A stretch of 64,000 nt of DNA from contig OZ250165.1 of assembly GCA_965238005.1 (NCBI GenBank), positions 3,424,001-3,488,000 on the forward strand. The letters are read 5' to 3'. Below are positions 17,535-35,638 of this stretch, piece by piece. How positions within the stretch are numbered: position 1 is the stretch's first letter; every line of letters begins with the position of its first letter. Source of the DNA: Longimicrobiales bacterium (GTDB lineage: Bacteria; Gemmatimonadota; Gemmatimonadetes; Longimicrobiales; Gaopeijiaceae). A program made the translations under genes and the position numbers. The notes under the pieces were generated by a model. That model did not search any database. It saw nothing but the letters and a program-made list of their open reading frames with translations, and had not been told where the DNA came from.

Positions 17535-17686
17535 TCCCCCCCTGGCTCGAGACCTTCGCGGCCGATCTTGTGGACCGTATCGAGCTGGGCCTCGAAGGGG
17601 ACTGAAGCCGGTCCACCGGCCGCTCCCCACTCTCTGCGGTCCCAGAGGCCCATGGCTCAGCCCCTGATCGGGTGGGACCGTTCCCT

Positions 17687-18667
17687 ATGCGCAAGAAACC
17701 CGATCTCGAGCGATCGCTCGCCAACACTAGCCGCCTCCTGAGACAGAGGGGTTACCGGAATAGGACGGTAGACGTGTACGCGCGATGGCTCCGGCGATTC
17801 GCAGAGGCCCATCCCGGTACCGCGGTAGAGGATCTCACCAGAAGGCACGTGGAGGAGTTCTTGAGCGTTCTCACGGACCAGCGGAGGTTAGCGCCGAAGA
17901 GTCGCAATCAAGCCGCGTCCGCGCTGGCGTTTTTCTTTAGAGAGGTTCTGGGCCGCGATGATCTTGCAGGCATGCCTCGGGCCCGAGAGCCGCAACGAAT
18001 ACCGACAGTGTTATCCCACGGGCAGGCCCGACTCGTGCTCAGCCATCTGTCCGGTAAATATCGACTGCTGGGTTCGCTGATGTATGGCACAGGCGCCCGC
18101 CTGACGGAGTGTCATCAACTGCGGGTGAAGGACATCGACTTCGACCTGGTGCAGATCGCCATACGGGACGGGAAGGGTGCCAAGGACCGTTGGGTCATGC
18201 TTCCCGAGCGGCTCGGCCCGGCGCTACGCCGCCAGGTATCTTGGGTAACGGAACTGCACGAGGAGGACAGACGGCAAGGAGGCGGCTGGGCGCAACTGCC
18301 GGGTGCACTGGATCGCAAGGATCCGCGTGGGGGATACGACCTCGGTTGGCAGTTCCTGTTCCCCGCGAGCCGATGGTCACGTGATCCCGCCACTAACAGG
18401 AAAGGTCGGTACCACCTCCATCCGACAGCGATGCAGAAGCGGATGAAGGAGGCCGCGCGAGCATCCGGCATTGCCAAGCCCGTCACGTGTCACATCCTCC
18501 GCAAATCTTTTGCCACCCAGATGTTTCGGGCCGGATACGACGCGCGTTCCGTGCGGAAGCTCATGGGGCACAGGGACATCCGCACGACAATGATCTACGT
18601 GCAAGCCATCACCGACGCCGGACTGGGCATGCGCAGCCCACTTGATCGACCGGAGGACCGGGACTAG
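17687..18667 (+). CDS. intI: Integron integrase
   Basis: Tyrosine recombinase residues R(GARLTE), K(GKGAKDR), HILR, GH, TTMIY, plus the integron-specific insert LPGALDRK...WQFLFPA...RYHLH. Confidence 0.95.
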   Translation: MRKKPDLERSLANTSRLLRQRGYRNRTVDVYARWLRRFAEAHPGTAVEDLTRRHVEEFLSVLTDQRRLAPKSRNQAASALAFFFREVLGRDDLAGMPRAREPQRIPTVLSHGQARLVLSHLSGKYRLLGSLMYGTGARLTECHQLRVKDIDFDLVQIAIRDGKGAKDRWVMLPERLGPALRRQVSWVTELHEEDRRQGGGWAQLPGALDRKDPRGGYDLGWQFLFPASRWSRDPATNRKGRYHLHPTAMQKRMKEAARASGIAKPVTCHILRKSFATQMFRAGYDARSVRKLMGHRDIRTTMIYVQAITDAGLGMRSPLDRPEDRD

Positions 18668-19961: not shown

Positions 19962-21639
19962 GAGGCCGTGTGAAAACTCACCATGATTGAACGGGGAGCG
20001 AGCACCTAGGGCGGTGAGCTTGACATTTTGCTGGGAGGGGCGGGAAAGTAGTCGGGTGGGGCGTTGCGGACCTGACAGGGCCGTCTGGAAGCGCCCCGAA
20101 GGGCGAAAAACGGCGCTGAGGACCCCCTCTACGCGAGGGCGTCCAGCAGCTGCGGGACCTCGACGATGTTGAGGACCCGCTTCAGGTTGTAGGCAAGCAC
20201 GGTCAGGCTGAACTCGCCGCGGACCTTCCGCATGCCTTTGAGCAGAAAGTACCCCTGGTCCATCCCGCGCTTCATCGTGCCAAACGGATGCTCCACTAGC
20301 GCTTTGCGCTGCGCGAAGCGCGCCTGCTCCCGCTGGAGCCGTTGCGCCATCTCCTCCATCAGGTGCTCGTCCGCCCACCGTGTGATCTTCCGCCCGTCTT
20401 TGTTGCGCGTACAGCGGGGCCTGAGTGGACACCGCTTACAGGCGGTGGTCCGATAGTTCTTGATGGTGCGCCCGAGCTCGACGGTGGTGGTGCGGTAGGT
20501 GAGCGTCTTCCCCGCAGGACAGCGATAGAGGTCCCGAGTCCGGTCGTAGACGAAGTCATCTTTGGTGAAGAGCCCGCGCTTGGCATTGGCCGAGGTGATC
20601 GGTCGGGGCACCAGCGGCGTGAGGCCCGCCTCCACACACGTCTTGATCTCGGCGCCGTGGTAGTAGCCCCGGTCGGCCACCACCACCGGCGTCACGTTCC
20701 TCAGTACCTCCTGGGCCGCCATGGCCATCGGACTGAGCTGATTCTGGTCGGCGGCGGCGTTGGTGACCGTCTCGGCCACAATCAACTTGTGCTTGGCGTC
20801 GACCGCGGTCTGGACGTTGTAGCAGATCTCGATGCGGCCCCCGCTCATCATCGGCCGACTGTCGGCATCGGTGAGTGAGCGCGCGCTCTCCCCACTCGCC
20901 GCCAGCTCTTGCTGGAGATCCTCGTAGCGCTCCCGGCGCTGCTTAAGCGCCGCAATCTTCTCGCGCAGGGCGTCGGCGCTCGGCCGCTCGGTGCCCGCCT
21001 CCGCCTCGTCCTGGCGCTCCAAGTCTCGCAGATAGCGCGCGATCGTGCGCTCGATGTCCCGTTGTAGCTTGGCCAAGCGGGCCGCGGTGTAGCTCCGATC
21101 CCGGGCATTGACCGCCCGGAACTTGCTCCCATCGATGGCGAGCAACTCGCCGCCAAAGAGGTCCAGCCGCTTGCACAAGAGAATGAACTCGCGGCATACG
21201 CCCTTCAGCGCCTGCGGGTGATCCCGGCGGAAGTCAGCGATGGTCTTGAAGTCGGGTCGCAGTCCTCGCACCAACCACATCAGCTCGATGTTGCGATGCG
21301 TCTCCTGCTCCAGCCGCCGGCTGGAGCGAATGCGGTGCAGGTAGCCGTATAGGTACAATCGCAGGAGATCACCGGGATCGTAGCCCGGGCGGCCCGTATC
21401 TGCAGGCACCGATCGCTGAAAACTGAGCGTGCCGAGATCGAGCTGCGCCACGAAGGCGTCGAGGAAGCGCACTGGGTTGTCAGCGGTGACGTAGTCGTCG
21501 AGGACCTCAGGGAGGAGCACCACTTGGGTGCGATCCCTGCCGGCGATATAGGCCATGGGCGAAGCTCCGAGCAAGGGGAGCACTGGCCAAAACACGGGAC
21601 GTATAATATATGGCACGTCAGGAGTTTTCACACAGGCTC
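19962..21639 (-). mobile_element. IS1182-family insertion sequence
   Basis: 18-bp TIRs (16/18) GAGGCCGTGTGAAAACTC / GAGTTTTCACACAGGCTC; 4-bp CGAT duplication. Confidence 0.93.
20129..21556 (-). CDS. IS1182 transposase
   Basis: GRPGYDP...IRSSRRLE, PDFKTIADFR, AIDGSK, ADRGY, VEHPFG. Confidence 0.95.
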   Translation of the reverse strand: MAYIAGRDRTQVVLLPEVLDDYVTADNPVRFLDAFVAQLDLGTLSFQRSVPADTGRPGYDPGDLLRLYLYGYLHRIRSSRRLEQETHRNIELMWLVRGLRPDFKTIADFRRDHPQALKGVCREFILLCKRLDLFGGELLAIDGSKFRAVNARDRSYTAARLAKLQRDIERTIARYLRDLERQDEAEAGTERPSADALREKIAALKQRRERYEDLQQELAASGESARSLTDADSRPMMSGGRIEICYNVQTAVDAKHKLIVAETVTNAAADQNQLSPMAMAAQEVLRNVTPVVVADRGYYHGAEIKTCVEAGLTPLVPRPITSANAKRGLFTKDDFVYDRTRDLYRCPAGKTLTYRTTTVELGRTIKNYRTTACKRCPLRPRCTRNKDGRKITRWADEHLMEEMAQRLQREQARFAQRKALVEHPFGTMKRGMDQGYFLLKGMRKVRGEFSLTVLAYNLKRVLNIVEVPQLLDALA

Positions 21640-21727
21640 CGATCGCTACAGTCGCGGAAGGAGCGAGTGGCTCGCGCGTGCCGCGCTCGGTGACCAGATT
21701 GGCCGCGCAGTAGAATCGCGAGACGTT

Positions 21728-22140
21728 CTATGAAAGAGAGTGTCAAGAGCGGCTCCGCCCCGGCTGGATGCGAAGCCGTGTTGGGCTTGGCACTCAGCCC
21801 CTTGGTTGGATTAGCCGGATCGTCAGAGAGCGGTGTGCTGGATGAGTCAGTCTTCGTGTGGGCCATGATGATCCTCGCTTGGATGATCGATCCGTCCGGA
21901 CTTGATTGAGTGGACCTGGGTCGTACGACGCGAACCATGGTTCTATCTGAGACTCAGCGGCTTGATACTTCTTCGGGTTCTGCGGAAGGGCCTGGAGTTA
22001 GACTCGTGCCTCGGCATGACTGCGAGCCGGGCGTACGTCTCGCGTTGAGACTGCCTCCCGCACCGTCGTCCGGGGATTCGACGTTCCAAGGGATCGAGGG
22101 TCATACGCTGCACCCTACGCTCCGGGACGACGAACCCCCT
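21728..22140 (-). ncRNA. Predicted bridge/seekRNA of IS110-B
   Basis: Minus strand has CGCGAGACGT (22044-22035) and TCTAAC (22002-21997) matching the two target flanks, and ATAGAAC (21946-21940) matching the element end junction. Confidence 0.75.
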
Positions 22141-23134
22141 CTATATTTGGGGTCGACTCAGCTGGGTCGGATCAAAGACTTCTCCGGTTTTGAGTAGACG
22201 AAGGGTGAGCGCGGCGAGCTTACGCGCCAGCGTCACACGGGCGAGCTCCTCGCGCATCCCGCGCTCGATCATTCGGTGATAGAAATCTTGTAGAGGGCCC
22301 CGACGTCCGATGGCTACGTTGGCGGCGCCCTTAAAGACATTCTTGAGTACGCGATTGTGGTTGGGGTTCAACCCTCGCGTGAGTGGAGGGCGACGACGAC
22401 GACGAGGGCGCCCATCAAACAACTCGTAGTCGGCGCCTTGGTCTTCTTGCGCTGAGTCCGAAGCACATCGAGCTGAGCGTACAGGGTCTCGGCACGTAGC
22501 CGAGCACCGTGCTCGGGTAGCTGTGCGACCCAGGCGGCGCGCCCCTTCGGCTGGTAGACACCGCCGCCCGTGGTTCGGATGGCCCGCGCACGGAAGAGTG
22601 CCTTGAGCCGCAGCATCACGCGCGTGCCGTCCTCGACGAGGTTGCGATAGGCTCGAGTTAGACACCGCCGCCCGTGGTTCGGATGGCCCGCGCACGGAAG
22701 AGTGCCTTGAGCCGCAGCATCACGCGCGTGCCGTCCTCGACGAGGTTGCGATAGGCTCGAGTCAGCTCCTTGAGATCGCCTCGGCCGTGTGCGCCGTGGT
22801 ATACCGCTCGCAGGCTGCCGCACCGCAACTGCTCCGACAGTTCGTCGGCATCGACCTGGTCCCCCTTGTTGCCCGATCGCTTCTCGCCTCTGCGGTCGCA
22901 CACGATCACCCGGTCTACACGAGGACTCAGTAGGTCGTAGAGCCACTGCGCCTGTGTTCCCTCCTCGAACACCACGTGCACCGACCCAGCCATCGCGCTG
23001 AAGAACTCCCTTATCGATTCGTCGCTCGTCTCCACCACGCTGCGCGCGATCACACGCCCCCCTTCGCTCCGAACCGTCGCCACCGTCATTGCCTGGTGCA
23101 CGTCGAGCCCCACATACTTGGTGTTCCGCTTCAT
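22141..23134 (-). pseudogene. IS110 transposase, disrupted
   Basis: YVGLDVH, FEEG, KGDQVDA, ARVTLARKLA; 104-bp tandem duplication (22555-22762) and an internal deletion. Confidence 0.88.
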
Positions 23135-23329
23135 GAGAGCCGCCCTCTGCTGTGGTCCATGGTTGTTTCGCAACTCCACGGTACCCACAGGGGGCGTGCT
23201 TTCAAGTTGTGTTAGAGCGCACCCCGGAACGCTTTCGGTCCTACGTGCGCGAGAAACCTTGCGATAACGAATGAGATACTTTATTTACCACAGTACTCTG
23301 CATCAGTTTGTTCTCCGCTCCGCGGACTC

Positions 23330-25048: not shown

Positions 25049-26518
25049 ATGCGCGCACCGAACCTGATGGCGATCCGGTCGACCTTGTTCGTCGCTCTCA
25101 CGACAGCTGCCCTCACCACCCTCGCGCTCGCGGCCGCACCGACCCACGCGGGCGCCCAGGCGACCGCCTCGGATTCCGAGGTCCTGGCTCAGATCGACCT
25201 CTTCTCCGCGTGGCTCGAAGGTCAGATCGAGATCCGTGGACTACCGGGCGCCGTCGGCGGCGTCGTTTCGGGTGATGAGCTGGTGTGGGCTGAGGGCTTC
25301 GGACGTGCGGACGTCGATGCGGATCGGCCCATGGAGACCGATATGCGCTTCCGCATGGCTTCGCACAGCAAGCTCTTCACCGCAACTGCTATCATGCAGC
25401 TCCGGGAACAAGGCAAGGTTCGGCTTGATGATCCCGTCACCGATTACCTGCCATGGTTCACCTTCCAGAGCGCCGCTCCTGACGATCCTCCGGTCACCAT
25501 CGAGCACCTGCTAACGCACAGCTCCGGGCTCCCGCGCGAGGCCGGTTCGCACTGGACCGACTTCGACTTCCCAACCCCCGAGGAGGTCCTCGAGTTGATG
25601 CCCGATCGTCAGGCCCCCTTCTCACCCGAAGTCCGCTGGAAGTACTCGAACCTCGCCTACACCATCGCCGGCATGATCGTGGAGGCGATCAGCGGGATGA
25701 GCTGGGCGGACTACCTTAAGCAGAACATATTTGACCCGCTCGGCATGAGCTCGTCTAGCGTCGATCTGCCGGACGCGAAGATGGCTACTGGGTACGGCCG
25801 TCGGATGCCCGACGGCTCTCGGCAGGTCTTTCCGTTCGTCGACGCGCGCGGGATGGCCGCCGCGACGGGACTCACGTCGACGGTCGAAGACATGGCCCGC
25901 TTCGTGTCTGCCCAGTTTCGGACGGGGGCCCGCGGCGGTGACCGGCTTCTGAGGACGGCATCGCTTCGGGAGATGCATCGTGTGCGCATGCTCGAAAACA
26001 CGTGGACGAGCGGCCAAGGCATCGGATTCAGCGTGCGACGGATCGACGGGAAGCTCTATGTCGGCCACGGCGGCGGATACCCGGGCTACACGACGAACAC
26101 GACGATCCAGCTCGACTCGAAGGTTGGTGTAATCGTTCTAACGAACACGAATGACTCGAACCCTTCCCAGATCGCGGAGCAGCTCATGGGCACGGTCGGC
26201 GAAGCTGTCGCCTCCGCGACCACAGTCGAGCCGGAGGTCGTCGCGTGGGATCCCGCGTGGGAGCGCTTCGCCGGTGTGTACCGGAGCCGCGGCGGCGAGA
26301 CGCGAGTCCTCGTCATGAACGAACGGCTGGTGACGATGAATCCGTGGGGCACGAGTATCGGGGACCCGACCCAACTCGAACTGATCGGCGACGGGACGTT
26401 TCGCATGGTGGCGCCCACAGGTGGTGGCCCGGTCGGCGAGATCGTCCGGTTCGTCGAGGAGAACGGCGAGGTCGTACGGATGATTACAGGAGATTCGTAC
26501 TCCGTACGCGTGCGCTAG
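25049..26518 (+). CDS. Serine hydrolase, beta-lactamase/PBP family, secreted
   Basis: Signal peptide; MASHSK (SxxK), LLTHSSGL, YSN, HGGG. Confidence 0.9.
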   Translation: MRAPNLMAIRSTLFVALTTAALTTLALAAAPTHAGAQATASDSEVLAQIDLFSAWLEGQIEIRGLPGAVGGVVSGDELVWAEGFGRADVDADRPMETDMRFRMASHSKLFTATAIMQLREQGKVRLDDPVTDYLPWFTFQSAAPDDPPVTIEHLLTHSSGLPREAGSHWTDFDFPTPEEVLELMPDRQAPFSPEVRWKYSNLAYTIAGMIVEAISGMSWADYLKQNIFDPLGMSSSSVDLPDAKMATGYGRRMPDGSRQVFPFVDARGMAAATGLTSTVEDMARFVSAQFRTGARGGDRLLRTASLREMHRVRMLENTWTSGQGIGFSVRRIDGKLYVGHGGGYPGYTTNTTIQLDSKVGVIVLTNTNDSNPSQIAEQLMGTVGEAVASATTVEPEVVAWDPAWERFAGVYRSRGGETRVLVMNERLVTMNPWGTSIGDPTQLELIGDGTFRMVAPTGGGPVGEIVRFVEENGEVVRMITGDSYSVRVR

Positions 26519-27286: not shown

Positions 27287-27465
27287 TCCTGCCTCCAACC
27301 ACCCATATGACATTTTGGCACGACCCCCGGCTTTTGGATGAACCATCAACTCAGATGGGATCTCTATCACGCGCACCTAGAAGCCAAGGTCGATCTGCAG
27401 AGGATCAAGCCGCTCCGCAGAAAAGACCTGGCTAGAACTGCGTAGCGCGGGCGCGCCACATAACA

Positions 27466-27924
27466 CTTATCAGGCCCCCGGAATCAAGAGCGCGCATGTC
27501 CCCCAGCGTGCCGCGGAGCGGCGCGTAGAAGAGTGAGCATCGGTCGCCGAGTCCTCTGACTTGGTTTCCGTAGGCAGGTGCGAGCGTAGGGAGCCTCTGC
27601 ACCAAACACTTATCGAGGTTCAACCGCCGGGTGCCCTTCGAGACGAGCTCGAAGGCGGCGGAGCAGGAGCCTCGTGTCCGCTCCTGCGACCTAGAAATTC
27701 ATCTGTACCCTCGTGCCGTCCGACTCCATTCAAGGTGAGCGGGCTCAGGCCGTGTTGTGAGGCCAGGCCAGTTAGCTCCGGGCTCGGGTGAGGGGCAGAG
27801 TCCATGGTGGACCGATGGCGATGTGTGTGAGGAGCGGGAGGAGGCGTCCAATCAAGCGAAGCGGCTGCCAACCATCCGCTGTCGGCTCGAGTTATATGTC
27901 AGGCTCGCCGACCTCCCCTCCCCG
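27466..27924 (-). ncRNA. Predicted bridge/seekRNA of IS110-A
   Basis: Minus strand has ATAAC (27895-27891) and TCGCTTG (27859-27853) matching target TAACAAGCGA, and GATAAGTG (27614-27607) matching the end junction. Confidence 0.7.
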
Positions 27925-28971
27925 TCAGGTGCGGGTATAGAAGCGTTCGGTGTCGAATGCCTGCCGGTTCTTGAGCATGAAGTAGGTCGCCCGGCCGATG
28001 CGAGCGGCGAGGATGCTGAGCGCTTTGCCCTTGCCGTGGCGGCGCGTGAGCTTCTTCAGATGAGCCTGGCCGCGGGCGTTGTCCCTGAGGAAGAGCACGG
28101 CGGCCTCGCTGAAGGCCCATTTGAGATGAGCGTTCCCGATCTTGGCTCCTCCGCTGCCGACCCGCTTGCCTGCACTGCGGTGCTCGGGCTTAGCGAGTCG
28201 ACAGTAGGAGCTGAAGCGCTGCACTGTGCTGAAGCGAGCGATGTCGTGGATCTCATAGAGCAGGGTGAGCGCCAGGATGCGGCCGACGCCGGGGATGGTT
28301 CGGAGCCGCTCCAGCGTGTCGAAGTCGTGGACACGGGCTTCCTGTTCGACCGTGTGCTCGAGCGCTCGGATCACCGGGTCGTAGCGATCGGCCAGGGCGA
28401 GGTCCGCCTCGATCGTCCTTTGGGTCATGGGATCATCGAATGCCTCGGCCAGGCCCTGGCGGTTCTTCTTGTACAGGAGCTGACCGGAGGGTCGAGGCAG
28501 GTTGTACTGATGGAAGGTGTTACGGATGTGGGCGAGCAGTTCGCCTCGCTTGCGCACGAAGTAGAGTCGGCGCCGGAGCACGTCGCGTGTGGCGCGCATC
28601 CCAGGTGGATAGACGTAGGCGACGGGAAAGGCGCCGCCTCGCAGCAGGACCGCCGTCTTGTGGGAGTCGATCTTGTCGTTCTTGGCCTTGGCCCCATGAA
28701 TCGCCTTCATGTAGAGCGCATGGCCGAGCACGAAGTGGATCTGCTCGCGAGCACACAGATCGGCCAGCCAGTACCAGCAGAAGATGCACTCGCTGCCCAC
28801 GACGAGGTCTGAACGGTAGGGCTCGAGGGCGCGAAGGAGTGCCTCGCGCTCACAGCGTAGCCTCTTGTGCAGGCGTATCTTGCCCTGGCAGTCCAGGACG
28901 CAGAGGTAGAGTGTGCGAGCATGAAGGTCGATGCCACAGTAGTATCGATGCTGGCCTGTGTAGAAGCGCAT
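27925..28971 (-). CDS. IS110 recombinase/transposase (intact ORF)
   Basis: RuvC-like DEDD (GIDLH, SEC, KNDKID), IPGVG, RSAG serine, GNAHLKWAF. Confidence 0.95.
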   Translation of the reverse strand: MRFYTGQHRYYCGIDLHARTLYLCVLDCQGKIRLHKRLRCEREALLRALEPYRSDLVVGSECIFCWYWLADLCAREQIHFVLGHALYMKAIHGAKAKNDKIDSHKTAVLLRGGAFPVAYVYPPGMRATRDVLRRRLYFVRKRGELLAHIRNTFHQYNLPRPSGQLLYKKNRQGLAEAFDDPMTQRTIEADLALADRYDPVIRALEHTVEQEARVHDFDTLERLRTIPGVGRILALTLLYEIHDIARFSTVQRFSSYCRLAKPEHRSAGKRVGSGGAKIGNAHLKWAFSEAAVLFLRDNARGQAHLKKLTRRHGKGKALSILAARIGRATYFMLKNRQAFDTERFYTRT

Positions 28972-29452
28972 GGTTCCCCTCCTGGGTTGGATGAATCGAG
29001 TTTGGCGCTCTGATTCTTCCGCCCTCTCTTCGAGAGGTCCAGGAGGGGGCCTGCATGAGCAGGCTTGCTACTGGCGCGTGCGACATCAGGCTCGCGCGCT
29101 TCGCTTGCAGTCGCCATCTTGGTCGCCGGCCGAACCCCGAATAGGTGCTCGAGTCCCTGAGGACTGCACGAGCGAGCTTGCGTGCAGTGGCGATGCGAGC
29201 GATGCGCCAATCGAGCCGATCCTTGAGCCGGTCGTAGTACTCGCTGAGCCAGCTTTCGGGAGATCGGCCGTGATGGATGACGACGGTCTGGACGAAGGCG
29301 TTTCGGAGCTAGCGATTGGCACCGGCCGGGATGGGCCCGTAGCGGACCGTCATCCCGGAACGAGCAGCACTGCGTCGATCGCATCGTTCTTGTAGTTGGC
29401 TTCGGCGATCGCGGCTTCTGAACAAGCGCTCCGTCTTTGCTCACCACCGCAA

Positions 29453-31604: not shown

Positions 31605-32165
31605 CTTATCAGGCCCCCGGAGTCAAGAGCACGCACGTCCCCCCCCTCCCCCCGACGCGTCGCGGAGCGGCGCGCTAGGCGAAATAAGCATCGGTCGCCG
31701 AGTCCTCTGACCTGGTTTCAGTAGGCAGGTGCGAGCGTAGGGAGCCTCTGCACCAAACACTTATCGAGGTTCAACCGCCGGGTGCCCTACGAGGCGAGCT
31801 CGAAGGCGGCGGAGCGAGAAGTCTTCGTTTCGATTCCTCGCGACCTAGAAATTCATCTGTACCCTCGTGCCGTCCGACTCCATTCAAGACGTAGGTTAGG
31901 GAAGGCGCCGCCTCGCAGCAGCACGGCCGTCTTGTGCGAGTCGATCTCGTCGTTCTTGGCCTTGGCCCCGTGGATCGCCTTCTGCCCTGCGAGTCCAGGA
32001 CGCAGAGGTAGAGTGTGCGAGCGTGAAGGTCGATGCCACAGTAGTATCGATGCTGGCCCGTGTATGAGCGCATGGTTCCCCTCCTGGGTTGGTTGAATCG
32101 AAGTGTCATGCTCTGATTCTTCCGTCCTCTCTTCGAGAGGTCCAGGAGGGGGCCTGCATGAGTAT
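31605..32165 (-). mobile_element. IS110-A deletion derivative in attC
   Basis: Both ends (CTTATCAGGCCCCC...GGGGGCCTGCATGAGTAT) with CA core; transposase mostly deleted. Confidence 0.88.
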
Positions 32166-35357: not shown

Positions 35358-35638
35358 CTTATCAAGAGCCCCGTGGATCGCCTTCATGTAGAGCCATGGC
35401 CGAGCACGAAGGGGATCTGCTCACGAGCACAGAGATCGGCGAGCCAGTACCAACAGAAGATGCACTCGCTGCCCACCACGAGGTCTGCACGGTGGGGCTT
35501 GAGGGCGCGAAGCAATGCCTCGCGCTCACAGCGCAGCCTCTTGTGCAGGCGTATCTTGCCCTGGGAGTCCAGGACGCAGAGGTAGAGCGTGCGAGCGTGA
35601 AGGTCGAAGATGCCACAGGAGGGGGCCTGCATGAGTAT
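35358..35638 (-). mobile_element. IS110-A deletion derivative in attC
   Basis: CTTATCA...transposase scrap (DLHARTLYLC)...GGGGGCCTGCATGAGTAT-CA. Confidence 0.85.

Follow-up and report, generated by a model that had tools for sequence, protein, structure and literature searches.

An IS1111-type insertion sequence in a Longimicrobiales integron, with a candidate guide-RNA region aimed at attC

We analysed a 64,000-nt stretch of the genome of a Longimicrobiales bacterium (assembly GCA_965238005.1, contig OZ250165.1, positions 3,424,001 to 3,488,000), referred to here as the window; unless stated otherwise, coordinates are those of the window. It contains element A (27466-29059, gene on the minus strand), which lies inside an attC site of a chromosomal integron and is very probably an IS1111-type insertion sequence with a guide-RNA region aimed at the R'' side of attC. 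The non-coding region downstream of its transposase gene comprises two folded modules that are conserved in alignments of relatives. Four short segments in the loops of these modules, G1 to G4, vary as guides would: G1 and G2 covary with the insertion flanks, and G3 and G4 covary with the element ends. A first-pass annotation of the window, made from the letters of the DNA, had read element A as a near-complete RNA-guided recombinase system. That reading is borne out here, in that the guides sit in loops of two covarying folds and track the flanks and ends of relatives. The annotation had G1, G2 and G4 only, and G3 is a fourth segment that is new here. The arrangement is the one already published for IS1111-type seekRNAs and bridge RNAs, attC-targeting members included. 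Systems of this kind were described in 2024 and are now used for genome engineering; a new member is by itself no discovery, and element A is a well-preserved illustration of guide-target co-variation, not a new mechanism.

The host genome is 4.84 Mb long in a single contig, and its nearest relatives in the genome collection are Longimicrobiales metagenome-assembled genomes. The integron integrase gene (17672-18667; TIGR02249, 326.8 bits against a cut-off of 265) has a cassette array downstream of it on the same strand. The attC-like repeats between the cassettes (repeat family D2 in the repeat analysis of the window, 8 copies, plus strand) start with TAACAAGCG. Element A is present three times in the array. 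Read along the cassettes, all three copies follow TAA(A)(CA) of an R'' box, and their gene is encoded on the other strand. The starts given earlier, after TAACA at 27466 and after TAA at 35358 on the plus strand, were correct, whereas the sequence before 31605, also given as TAACA, is TAAACA; copy 3 is preceded by GCCTAA. An empty attC reads TAACAAGCG and an occupied one reads TAACA/element/CAAGCG. Because empty and occupied sites can be compared in this way (TAA-CA-AGCG becomes TAA-CA-element-CA-AGCG), the crossover can be placed at a 2-nt core that reads CA in cassette orientation and TG in gene orientation. Joined element ends would read GAGTAT-CA-CTTATC. Non-coding DNA extends for 459 nt downstream of the transposase gene, compared with 88 nt upstream. 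The subterminal inverted repeats (CAGGCCCCC/GGGGGCCTG) are 9 bp long and perfect in copy 1. The terminal extensions beyond these repeats, core excluded, measure 8-9 nt (left) and 4 nt (right), as against 7 (or 6) and 3 bp in IS1111, a difference that may be one of convention. The copies and boundaries are as follows.

27466-29059, minus strand: copy 1; in plus-strand reading it starts with CTTATC at 27466, after ATAACA
27464-27465, minus strand: core dinucleotide at the right-end junction (plus strand CA, gene strand TG), which recurs at the other junction; TG on both sides in relatives
27466-27481, minus strand: right end, consisting of the subterminal inverted repeat (gene strand CCGGGGGCCTGA) and the terminal extension TAAG; same architecture in relatives
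28972-29059, minus strand: left end, with ribosome-binding site, subterminal repeat (29045-29053) and shortened terminal extension
29060-29134, plus strand: rest of the interrupted attC, CAGGCTTGCTAC...GCGCGCTTCGCTTGCAGTCGCC; repeat family D6, diverged from the other sites
31605-32165, minus strand: copy 2, a deletion derivative that lacks module 1; still present are the right end, module 2, two fragments of the gene and a left end that is complete
35358-35638, minus strand: copy 3, a fragment in which 7 nt of the right end run directly into the 5' part of the gene, with a left end that is complete

The modules, their segments and a further conserved block have the following positions.

27830-27922, minus strand: module 1, candidate target-binding (seekRNA-like) module, starting 3 nt past the stop codon
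27891-27899, minus strand: G1, ACATATAAC, complementary to the gene-strand target right of the crossover; the copy 1 flank gives CCACATAAC
27853-27861 (27848-27861 with ATTGG), minus strand: G2, CTTCGCTTG, reading in the sense of the target on the left side of the crossover (CAAGCGA in attC)
27599-27735, minus strand: module 2, candidate donor-binding module, with the conserved lead TTGAAT..GGACGGCACGAGGG
27695-27703, minus strand: G3, GATGAATTT, partly complementary to the left end (the reverse complement of ATACTCATG is CATGAGTAT)
27607-27614 (followed by TTTGG, 27602-27606), minus strand: G4, GATAAGTG, identical to right end plus core at 27464-27471
27553-27568, minus strand: conserved block GAAACCAAGTCAGAGG, downstream of module 2, from the alignment

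Module 1 is predicted to fold into an outer stem and an internal loop, closed by an inner hairpin whose length varies. The loop ends with nnnnnTAAC (G1) on its 5' side and reads nnnnnnTTG (G2), then ATTGG, on its 3' side. For module 2, the prediction is an outer helix, a loop with G3 and G4, and an inner helix (AGGU/ACCU) enclosing two hairpins that vary. Its parts follow in the order lead (TTGAnTnGGACGGCAyGAGGGyAC, invariant in relatives), a 9-nt variable segment (G3), CTAGG, inner helix, AACCUC, the 8-mer G4, and UUUGGUGCAG. The first-pass annotation had reported short matches in this region, and we recovered each of them on the minus strand: ATAAC at 27891-27895 and TCGCTTG exactly 31 nt later at 27853-27859, nTTGG after TCGCTTG (ATTGG, 27848-27852) and after the end-junction 8-mer (TTTGG), and the 8-mer itself both inside the non-coding end and at the junction.

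Are these matches more than chance? The matches are only 5-8 nt each, ATAAC alone was found in 1,716 of 20,000 dinucleotide-preserving shuffles of the non-coding region, and attC sites are structured, with a shape that is recognized by other recombinases. The protein might pick its target by recognizing the folded attC, and the matches in the window would be fortuitous. However, while TCGCTTG occurred in 904 shuffles and GATAAGTG in 12, this 7-mer and 8-mer occurred jointly in none of the 20,000. Moreover, the segments are fixed within conserved folds and change with the flanks over 22-24 distinct guide variants, as described below. We consider it barely credible that the matches are due to chance and that target choice lies with the protein.

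Relatives of element A were identified by a scan of one genome per species. There were 539 confirmed relatives, from which the best 79 loci were kept (56-96% identity); they span Gemmatimonadota, Desulfobacterota, Nitrospirota, Acidobacteriota, Chloroflexota, Planctomycetota and others. An inverted-repeat finder with a 12-nt window missed most ends, and ends were taken by motif search instead. On the gene strand, the left end of relatives reads ...TTG/ATACT(C/A/T)AT..(A/G)GGCC and the right end reads GGCC..(G/T/C)ATA(A/G)GTG/TTAG..., with subterminal inverted repeats of up to 12 perfect bp (12 bp with 0-1 mismatch). In cassette orientation, the joined flanks (47 distinct left, 44 distinct right) give GCCTAACAAGnGnnTGCAGCnGnCGG, and the attC consensus of the window is CTAACAAGCGnTTGCTGCTGTCGCGG. 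Judged by these sequences, it is likely that the whole family targets attC sites, beyond this window too.

We compared guides with flanks and ends by counting each distinct guide once and permuting the flanks among the guides 50,000 times. G1 matched the flank at 86.6 of 144 comparisons (6 variable positions, 24 guides), against a permutation mean of 60.3, and G2 at 56.0 of 132 (6 variable positions, 22 guides), against 34.3; no permutation reached the observed value in either case. The same was true of G3 and the left end (20 guides; 107.3 of 180 matches, permutation mean 87.7; 0/50,000). For G4 and the right end, with 7 guides, 49.4 of 56 positions matched, the permutation mean was 44.9, and 244 of 50,000 permutations reached the observed value. 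Individual loci illustrate the pattern. In L042 the G1 guide and its flank are both CCGCCCAAC (9/9); in L072 the guide is GCGCACAAC and the flank TTGCACAAC (7/9, with CACAAC); in L032 guide and flank agree at 8/9 positions; and in L030 G2 is CTCCCCGTG (CCCCGTG) beside the flank GGCCCCGTG. Between element A and relatives that are 94% identical to it, G1 differs (ACATATAAC and ATTTCTAAC) and the flanks differ alike (CCACATAAC and CTGTCTAAC; ATAAC and TCTAAC). On the protein tree, 36 of 41 relatives have the same TAAG or TAGG state in G4 and in the right end. These states are interspersed on the tree, and several coordinated switches are therefore needed to explain them. A relative on a Vibrio plasmid has a third state, TATG, in both places. 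Over the 79 loci, the segments thus covary with their DNA partners.

The two folds are conserved as well. Both structures were derived from the very sequences tested, which favours the structures in controls of this type, and the results are as follows: for module 1 (15 sequences; 21 pairs, 6 with changes on both sides), 93.7% of cells were paired, compared with 89.2% in shuffles and 46-60% when partners were slid, and the covariation score was 0.219, compared with 0.146 in shuffles; for module 2 (21 sequences; 13 pairs in the stated structure, 6 with changes on both sides), 93.8% of cells were paired, compared with 85.8% in shuffles and 32-41% when partners were slid, and the score was 0.356, compared with 0.191. 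For neither module did any of 500 shuffles reach the observed score. A covariance model of the non-coding end had been suggested as a check in the first-pass annotation. The model that we built for module 1, from 15 short-type sequences, finds module 1 in the window and finds it at full length, from the stop codon, in 24 of 29 sources outside the model, including a Vibrio plasmid.

An alternative is that the downstream region gives no guide RNA but acts at the DNA level, by binding proteins or by DNA-DNA pairing at the ends. None of the listed sequencing runs that contain element A is recorded as RNA, and recombination between DNA copies is open to the internal version of the right end. In the relative L017, ~460-611 nt past the stop codon, a 142-nt stretch from the internal GATAAGTG to the real right end is tandemly duplicated; the duplication junction reads right end/TTTGG, as if the internal copy had served as an end. 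However, compensatory changes keep the helices of both modules, which fits a folded single strand. Furthermore, in ISEc11, ISKpn4, ISPa11 and ISPst6 the RNA of this region co-purifies with the transposase and is needed for movement, according to the sections of PMC11187229 on these elements. We therefore regard an action as DNA as highly improbable.

Several observations weigh against a guide-RNA region aimed at attC. Besides the lack of a run recorded as RNA, an Rfam scan of 20000-45000 (E up to 1) gave no match in the element, its sole match being a sub-threshold Hammerhead_II outside it, and a scan of the gene strand inside the element gave no sigma-70-like promoter or terminator. Four runs labelled as metatranscriptomes (whole-genome amplification or chromatin immunoprecipitation) are Logan contigs of relatives, mostly 90-95% alike, and are silent on expression and RNA ends. 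Some guides match imperfectly: the left flank of copy 1 itself, GCAAGCCTG, agrees with G2 at only 4/9 positions; G3 matches the left end at only 5-8 of 9 positions and always has TTT where full complementarity to the outermost bases of the left end needs TAT; and G4 and the right end disagree in 5 of the 41 relatives, all with ends TAAGGG. The covariation of G3 and G4 with the ends is, in addition, confounded by shared descent. With respect to the target, the R' complement agreed with the R'' flank beside relatives at 6 or more of 7 positions in 9 of 30 cases, no more than in shuffles. As this comparison is without signal, it is the shared flank consensus only that identifies the targets of relatives as attC. 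RNAalifold gave almost no energy (-0.21 kcal/mol) on the long alignment of module 2 and a partly different outer helix on a shorter one. One stated structure was chosen for testing after these outcomes; two alternative outer-helix pairings are predicted for module 2, and its fine structure is therefore tentative.

The protein encoded by element A is in keeping with a guide-dependent recombinase. The transposase/recombinase gene occupies the following position.

27925-28971, minus strand: transposase/recombinase gene, 348 aa, no internal stop

Its product matches PF01548 (E 6e-9) and PF02371 (E 1.8e-19), and scores 184.6 bits, against a cut-off of 140, with the model NF033542 ("IS110 family RNA-guided transposase"). 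The DEDD residues (D15, E61, D99 and D102) and S266 are the same in every one of the 16 homologues aligned (65-94% identity), which upholds the earlier statement that the open reading frame keeps DEDD and a C-terminal serine. The C-terminal domain aligns with the IS621 (E 1.6e-4) and ISCro4 (E 3e-4) chains, where S266 stands opposite the serine of the YESG motif and NDKID is aligned with the IS621 chain; the IS621 residues used in this comparison are ones that we take to be catalytic. The element also has traits of IS1111, namely subterminal repeats in the 7-17 bp range and a long downstream non-coding region. By these sequence features, element A is an IS110-family, IS1111-type insertion sequence.

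How might such an element move? The boundaries, the 2-nt core, the two folds with their compensatory changes and the guide covariation are results of computation; from published relatives we infer that the RNA is made and bound, that there is a circular intermediate with a junction promoter, and that strand exchange follows the same chemistry. The mechanism that we consider most probable is the one demonstrated by experiment in relatives. The downstream region would be transcribed to give a guide RNA that binds the recombinase. In the internal loop of module 1, G1 would pair with one target strand right of the crossover, and G2 with the other strand left of it. Module 2 would recognize the joined ends of the excised circular element, since G4 equals the right end and G3 partly complements the left end. 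The recombinase would then exchange strands at the shared TG/CA core. A promoter might arise at the junction upon circularization, with TTGAC(A/T) inside the right end, a spacer of 17-18 nt, and GATACT spanning the joined ends; such a promoter is suggested by passages of PMC13604230. In copy 1 both halves of this putative promoter are altered: the first is TTGATT, and ATA is gone from the second.

27482-27487, minus strand: -35-like hexamer TTGATT, which is TTGACT or TTGACA in relatives; immediately inside the right repeat, a CTTGAC block is conserved

Published work on IS1111-type elements describes most of these features. In the account of Siddiquee et al. (PMC11187229), as far as its relevant sections go, a seekRNA derived from the downstream non-coding region is purified together with the transposase and is required for movement, and the top-strand match lies 5' of the bottom-strand match in the seekRNA loop. 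In element A, G1 (complementary to the gene strand) lies 31 nt 5' of G2 (in the sense of the gene strand), which is the IS1111 guide order. According to passages of Durrant et al. (PMC11208160), 93% of IS1111 elements have a predicted bridge RNA in their right end, the donor-binding nucleotides are often in a multi-loop, and the subterminal inverted repeats of IS1111 are 7-17 bp long. By analogy, module 2 looks like the multi-loop donor-binding part described for IS1111 bridge RNAs.

Some IS1111 elements, here called IS1111-attC, also target attC; ISKpn4, ISPst6 and ISPa25 are given as examples in part of PMC11187229. With this group (ISKpn4, ISPst6, ISPa25 and ISPa21), element A shares the DEDD/serine recombinase, the subterminal repeats, the downstream guide region and the order of the matches. 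It also shares insertion near the 5' (R'') end of attC in antisense orientation, as a section of PMC3001079 describes for IS1111-attC elements relative to the cassettes. The first module of element A is ~90 nt long and begins at the stop codon, compared with seekRNAs of 82-86 nt reported for the group. The two modules of element A together occupy ~330 nt, about twice the 148-151 nt given for the long forms of the group. The crossover differs too. With the insertion point marked by an asterisk, the ISKpn4 target is listed as CGGCTTGAA*CGAATTGTTAG (..TTGAA*CGAATTGTTAG) in Table 1 of PMC13604230, with ISPst6 and ISPa25 alike; because of this tabulated target, we place the crossover of ISKpn4, ISPst6 and ISPa25 7 nt before TTAG, whereas that of the element A family abuts TTAG (TTG*TTAG). 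Among the 38 distinct plasmid records listed from 620 matching, none from Klebsiella or Pseudomonas exceeded ~31% protein identity, and in protein and DNA searches of plasmids the Klebsiella and Pseudomonas matches were, among those listed, only distant or unrelated.

The elements ISEc11 and ISPa11, for which a seekRNA is experimentally shown, have the same architecture and order of matches as element A. They differ in their targets, a linear site and repetitive extragenic palindromic (REP) sequences, and their transposases are only distantly related. The natural redirection between ISEc11 and ISXne4 by a change in the loop segments, as reported in the section that treats it, parallels the difference between element A and its 94%-identical relatives. 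IS621 and ISCro4 have in common with element A the catalytic DEDD and serine, an alignable C-terminal domain, and a two-loop guide RNA for both strands of target and donor around a 2-nt core, which is predicted in the case of element A. In contrast, the RNA of IS621 and ISCro4 lies upstream of the gene, in the left end, and is one compact 177-nt molecule with the guide order reversed; these elements are without long subterminal repeats, and their similarity to element A is marginal (E 1.6e-4, C-terminal domain only). A full-text literature search found only PMC11208160 and PMC11187229 to link bridge RNAs or seekRNAs to attC, and the family may still have been named.

What is the significance of this family? 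The 22-24 guide variants over 79 loci are a natural series that supports the IS1111-type pairing rules without experiment. The family also points to a second place at which integron parasites can cross over: these elements, spread over chromosomal integrons from many phyla, can insert right beside the R'' box of attC sites. Element A hints at a donor-binding module separate from the target-binding module, which would bear on how IS1111-type elements recognize their own ends; an 82-nt target-only RNA sufficed in one assay in the relevant section of PMC11187229. We entertain, as a doubtful extension, that the family, a widespread environmental clade, is a lineage of attC parasites apart from the ISPst6/ISKpn4 group, which would have come to the same host site independently but cross over elsewhere in it, at the R'' box. 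The guide of the family would be bipartite, with a target module at the stop codon and a donor multi-loop module ~190 nt downstream, perhaps as two RNAs that amount to a natural split bridge RNA. If so, the 22-24 natural variants would be a ready-made map of programmable loop positions.

Copy 1 is probably no longer mobile. Its left end reads ...CCTGCATGAG/CAGGC on the plus strand, whereas copies 2 and 3 read ...CCTGCATGAGTAT/CAAGC, and relatives that are 94% identical begin with ATACTCATGCAGGCC on the gene strand. Hence, as noted in the first-pass annotation, which had raised the possibility of immobility, copy 1 is 3 nt short at this end: CTCATG is kept and the outermost ATA is gone. This ATA is kept in copies 2 and 3, and AT(A/T) starts all 47 left ends found in relatives. 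Copy 1 has the sole intact gene of its kind in the genome. The 12 other tblastn matches in the genome are fragments or distant IS110 lineages, and the covariance model of module 1 has a single match in the genome, with no second copy. The short left end and the sole intact copy together lead us to consider copy 1 probably immobile; copies 2 and 3 are dead remnants. Fragments of the element A gene also occur outside the window at 84-86% identity, at genome positions 3672784-3673045 (~185 kb off) and 2136374-2136466 (~1.3 Mb off).

It is less plausible, though worth weighing, that copy 1 can still move, its short left end being a tolerated variant or the boundary being drawn elsewhere; the system would then be complete. 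Copy 1 has kept its gene, its right end and the two modules intact, and it fits every invariant column of the family alignments. In addition, G3 pairs with the outermost bases of the left end in no relative, and those bases may thus matter less for RNA recognition. However, an AT(A/T) start is universal among the 47 ends and copies 2 and 3, and loss of 3 nt shifts the crossover relative to the subterminal repeat and removes part of the putative -10 of the junction promoter. One intact copy in 4.84 Mb, the rest being remnants, is also what would be expected once movement had stopped. We therefore favour loss of mobility. In 2008, Tetu and Holmes reportedly described a cycle of spread and decay, or infection and extinction, of attC-targeting insertion sequences in cassette arrays; one near-whole copy and two wrecks fit such a cycle, which element A would share with the IS1111-attC elements.

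The window contains a second, very divergent IS110-family element, element B (21728-23210, minus strand), which is missed by tblastn with the element A transposase. Element B sits at the GTT of an attC R' box, since AAC is found on both sides in its own orientation. Its non-coding region has CGCGAGACGT (22035-22044), the complement of the right flank, and, 32 nt after it, TCTAAC (21997-22002), which equals the left flank. A quick look thus agrees with the earlier remark that guide order and spacing in element A are like those of element B: the order is the same and the spacing nearly so. The ends of element B have a 6-bp repeat, TGAAAG, with extensions of 6 and 3 nt. Its transposase gene contains an exact 104-bp tandem duplication (22555-22762; repeat family D7) that disrupts the reading frame.

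Other features of the array are listed by position. The integrase gene (17672-18667) shares its strand with the cassettes and the attC sites, whereas the textbook layout is divergent. An insertion sequence of the IS1182 family (19962-21640; NF033551, 424 bits), with terminal repeats GAGGCCGTGTGAAAACTC/GGAGCCTGTGTGAAAACTCC, lies in an attC after TAACAAGCGAT; this single attC site carries two different elements, the IS1182-family insertion sequence and element B. In the cassette region, 25049-26518 is an open reading frame of the PF00144 serine-hydrolase/beta-lactamase family. Just past the attC remnant by the left end of copy 1, 29162-29362 (minus strand) has a weak match to a C-terminal IS110 transposase model (22.6 bits, one internal TAG) and may be the stub of a further element. 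A Mutator-family transposase gene (PF00872; 29570-30859) lies between copies 1 and 2.

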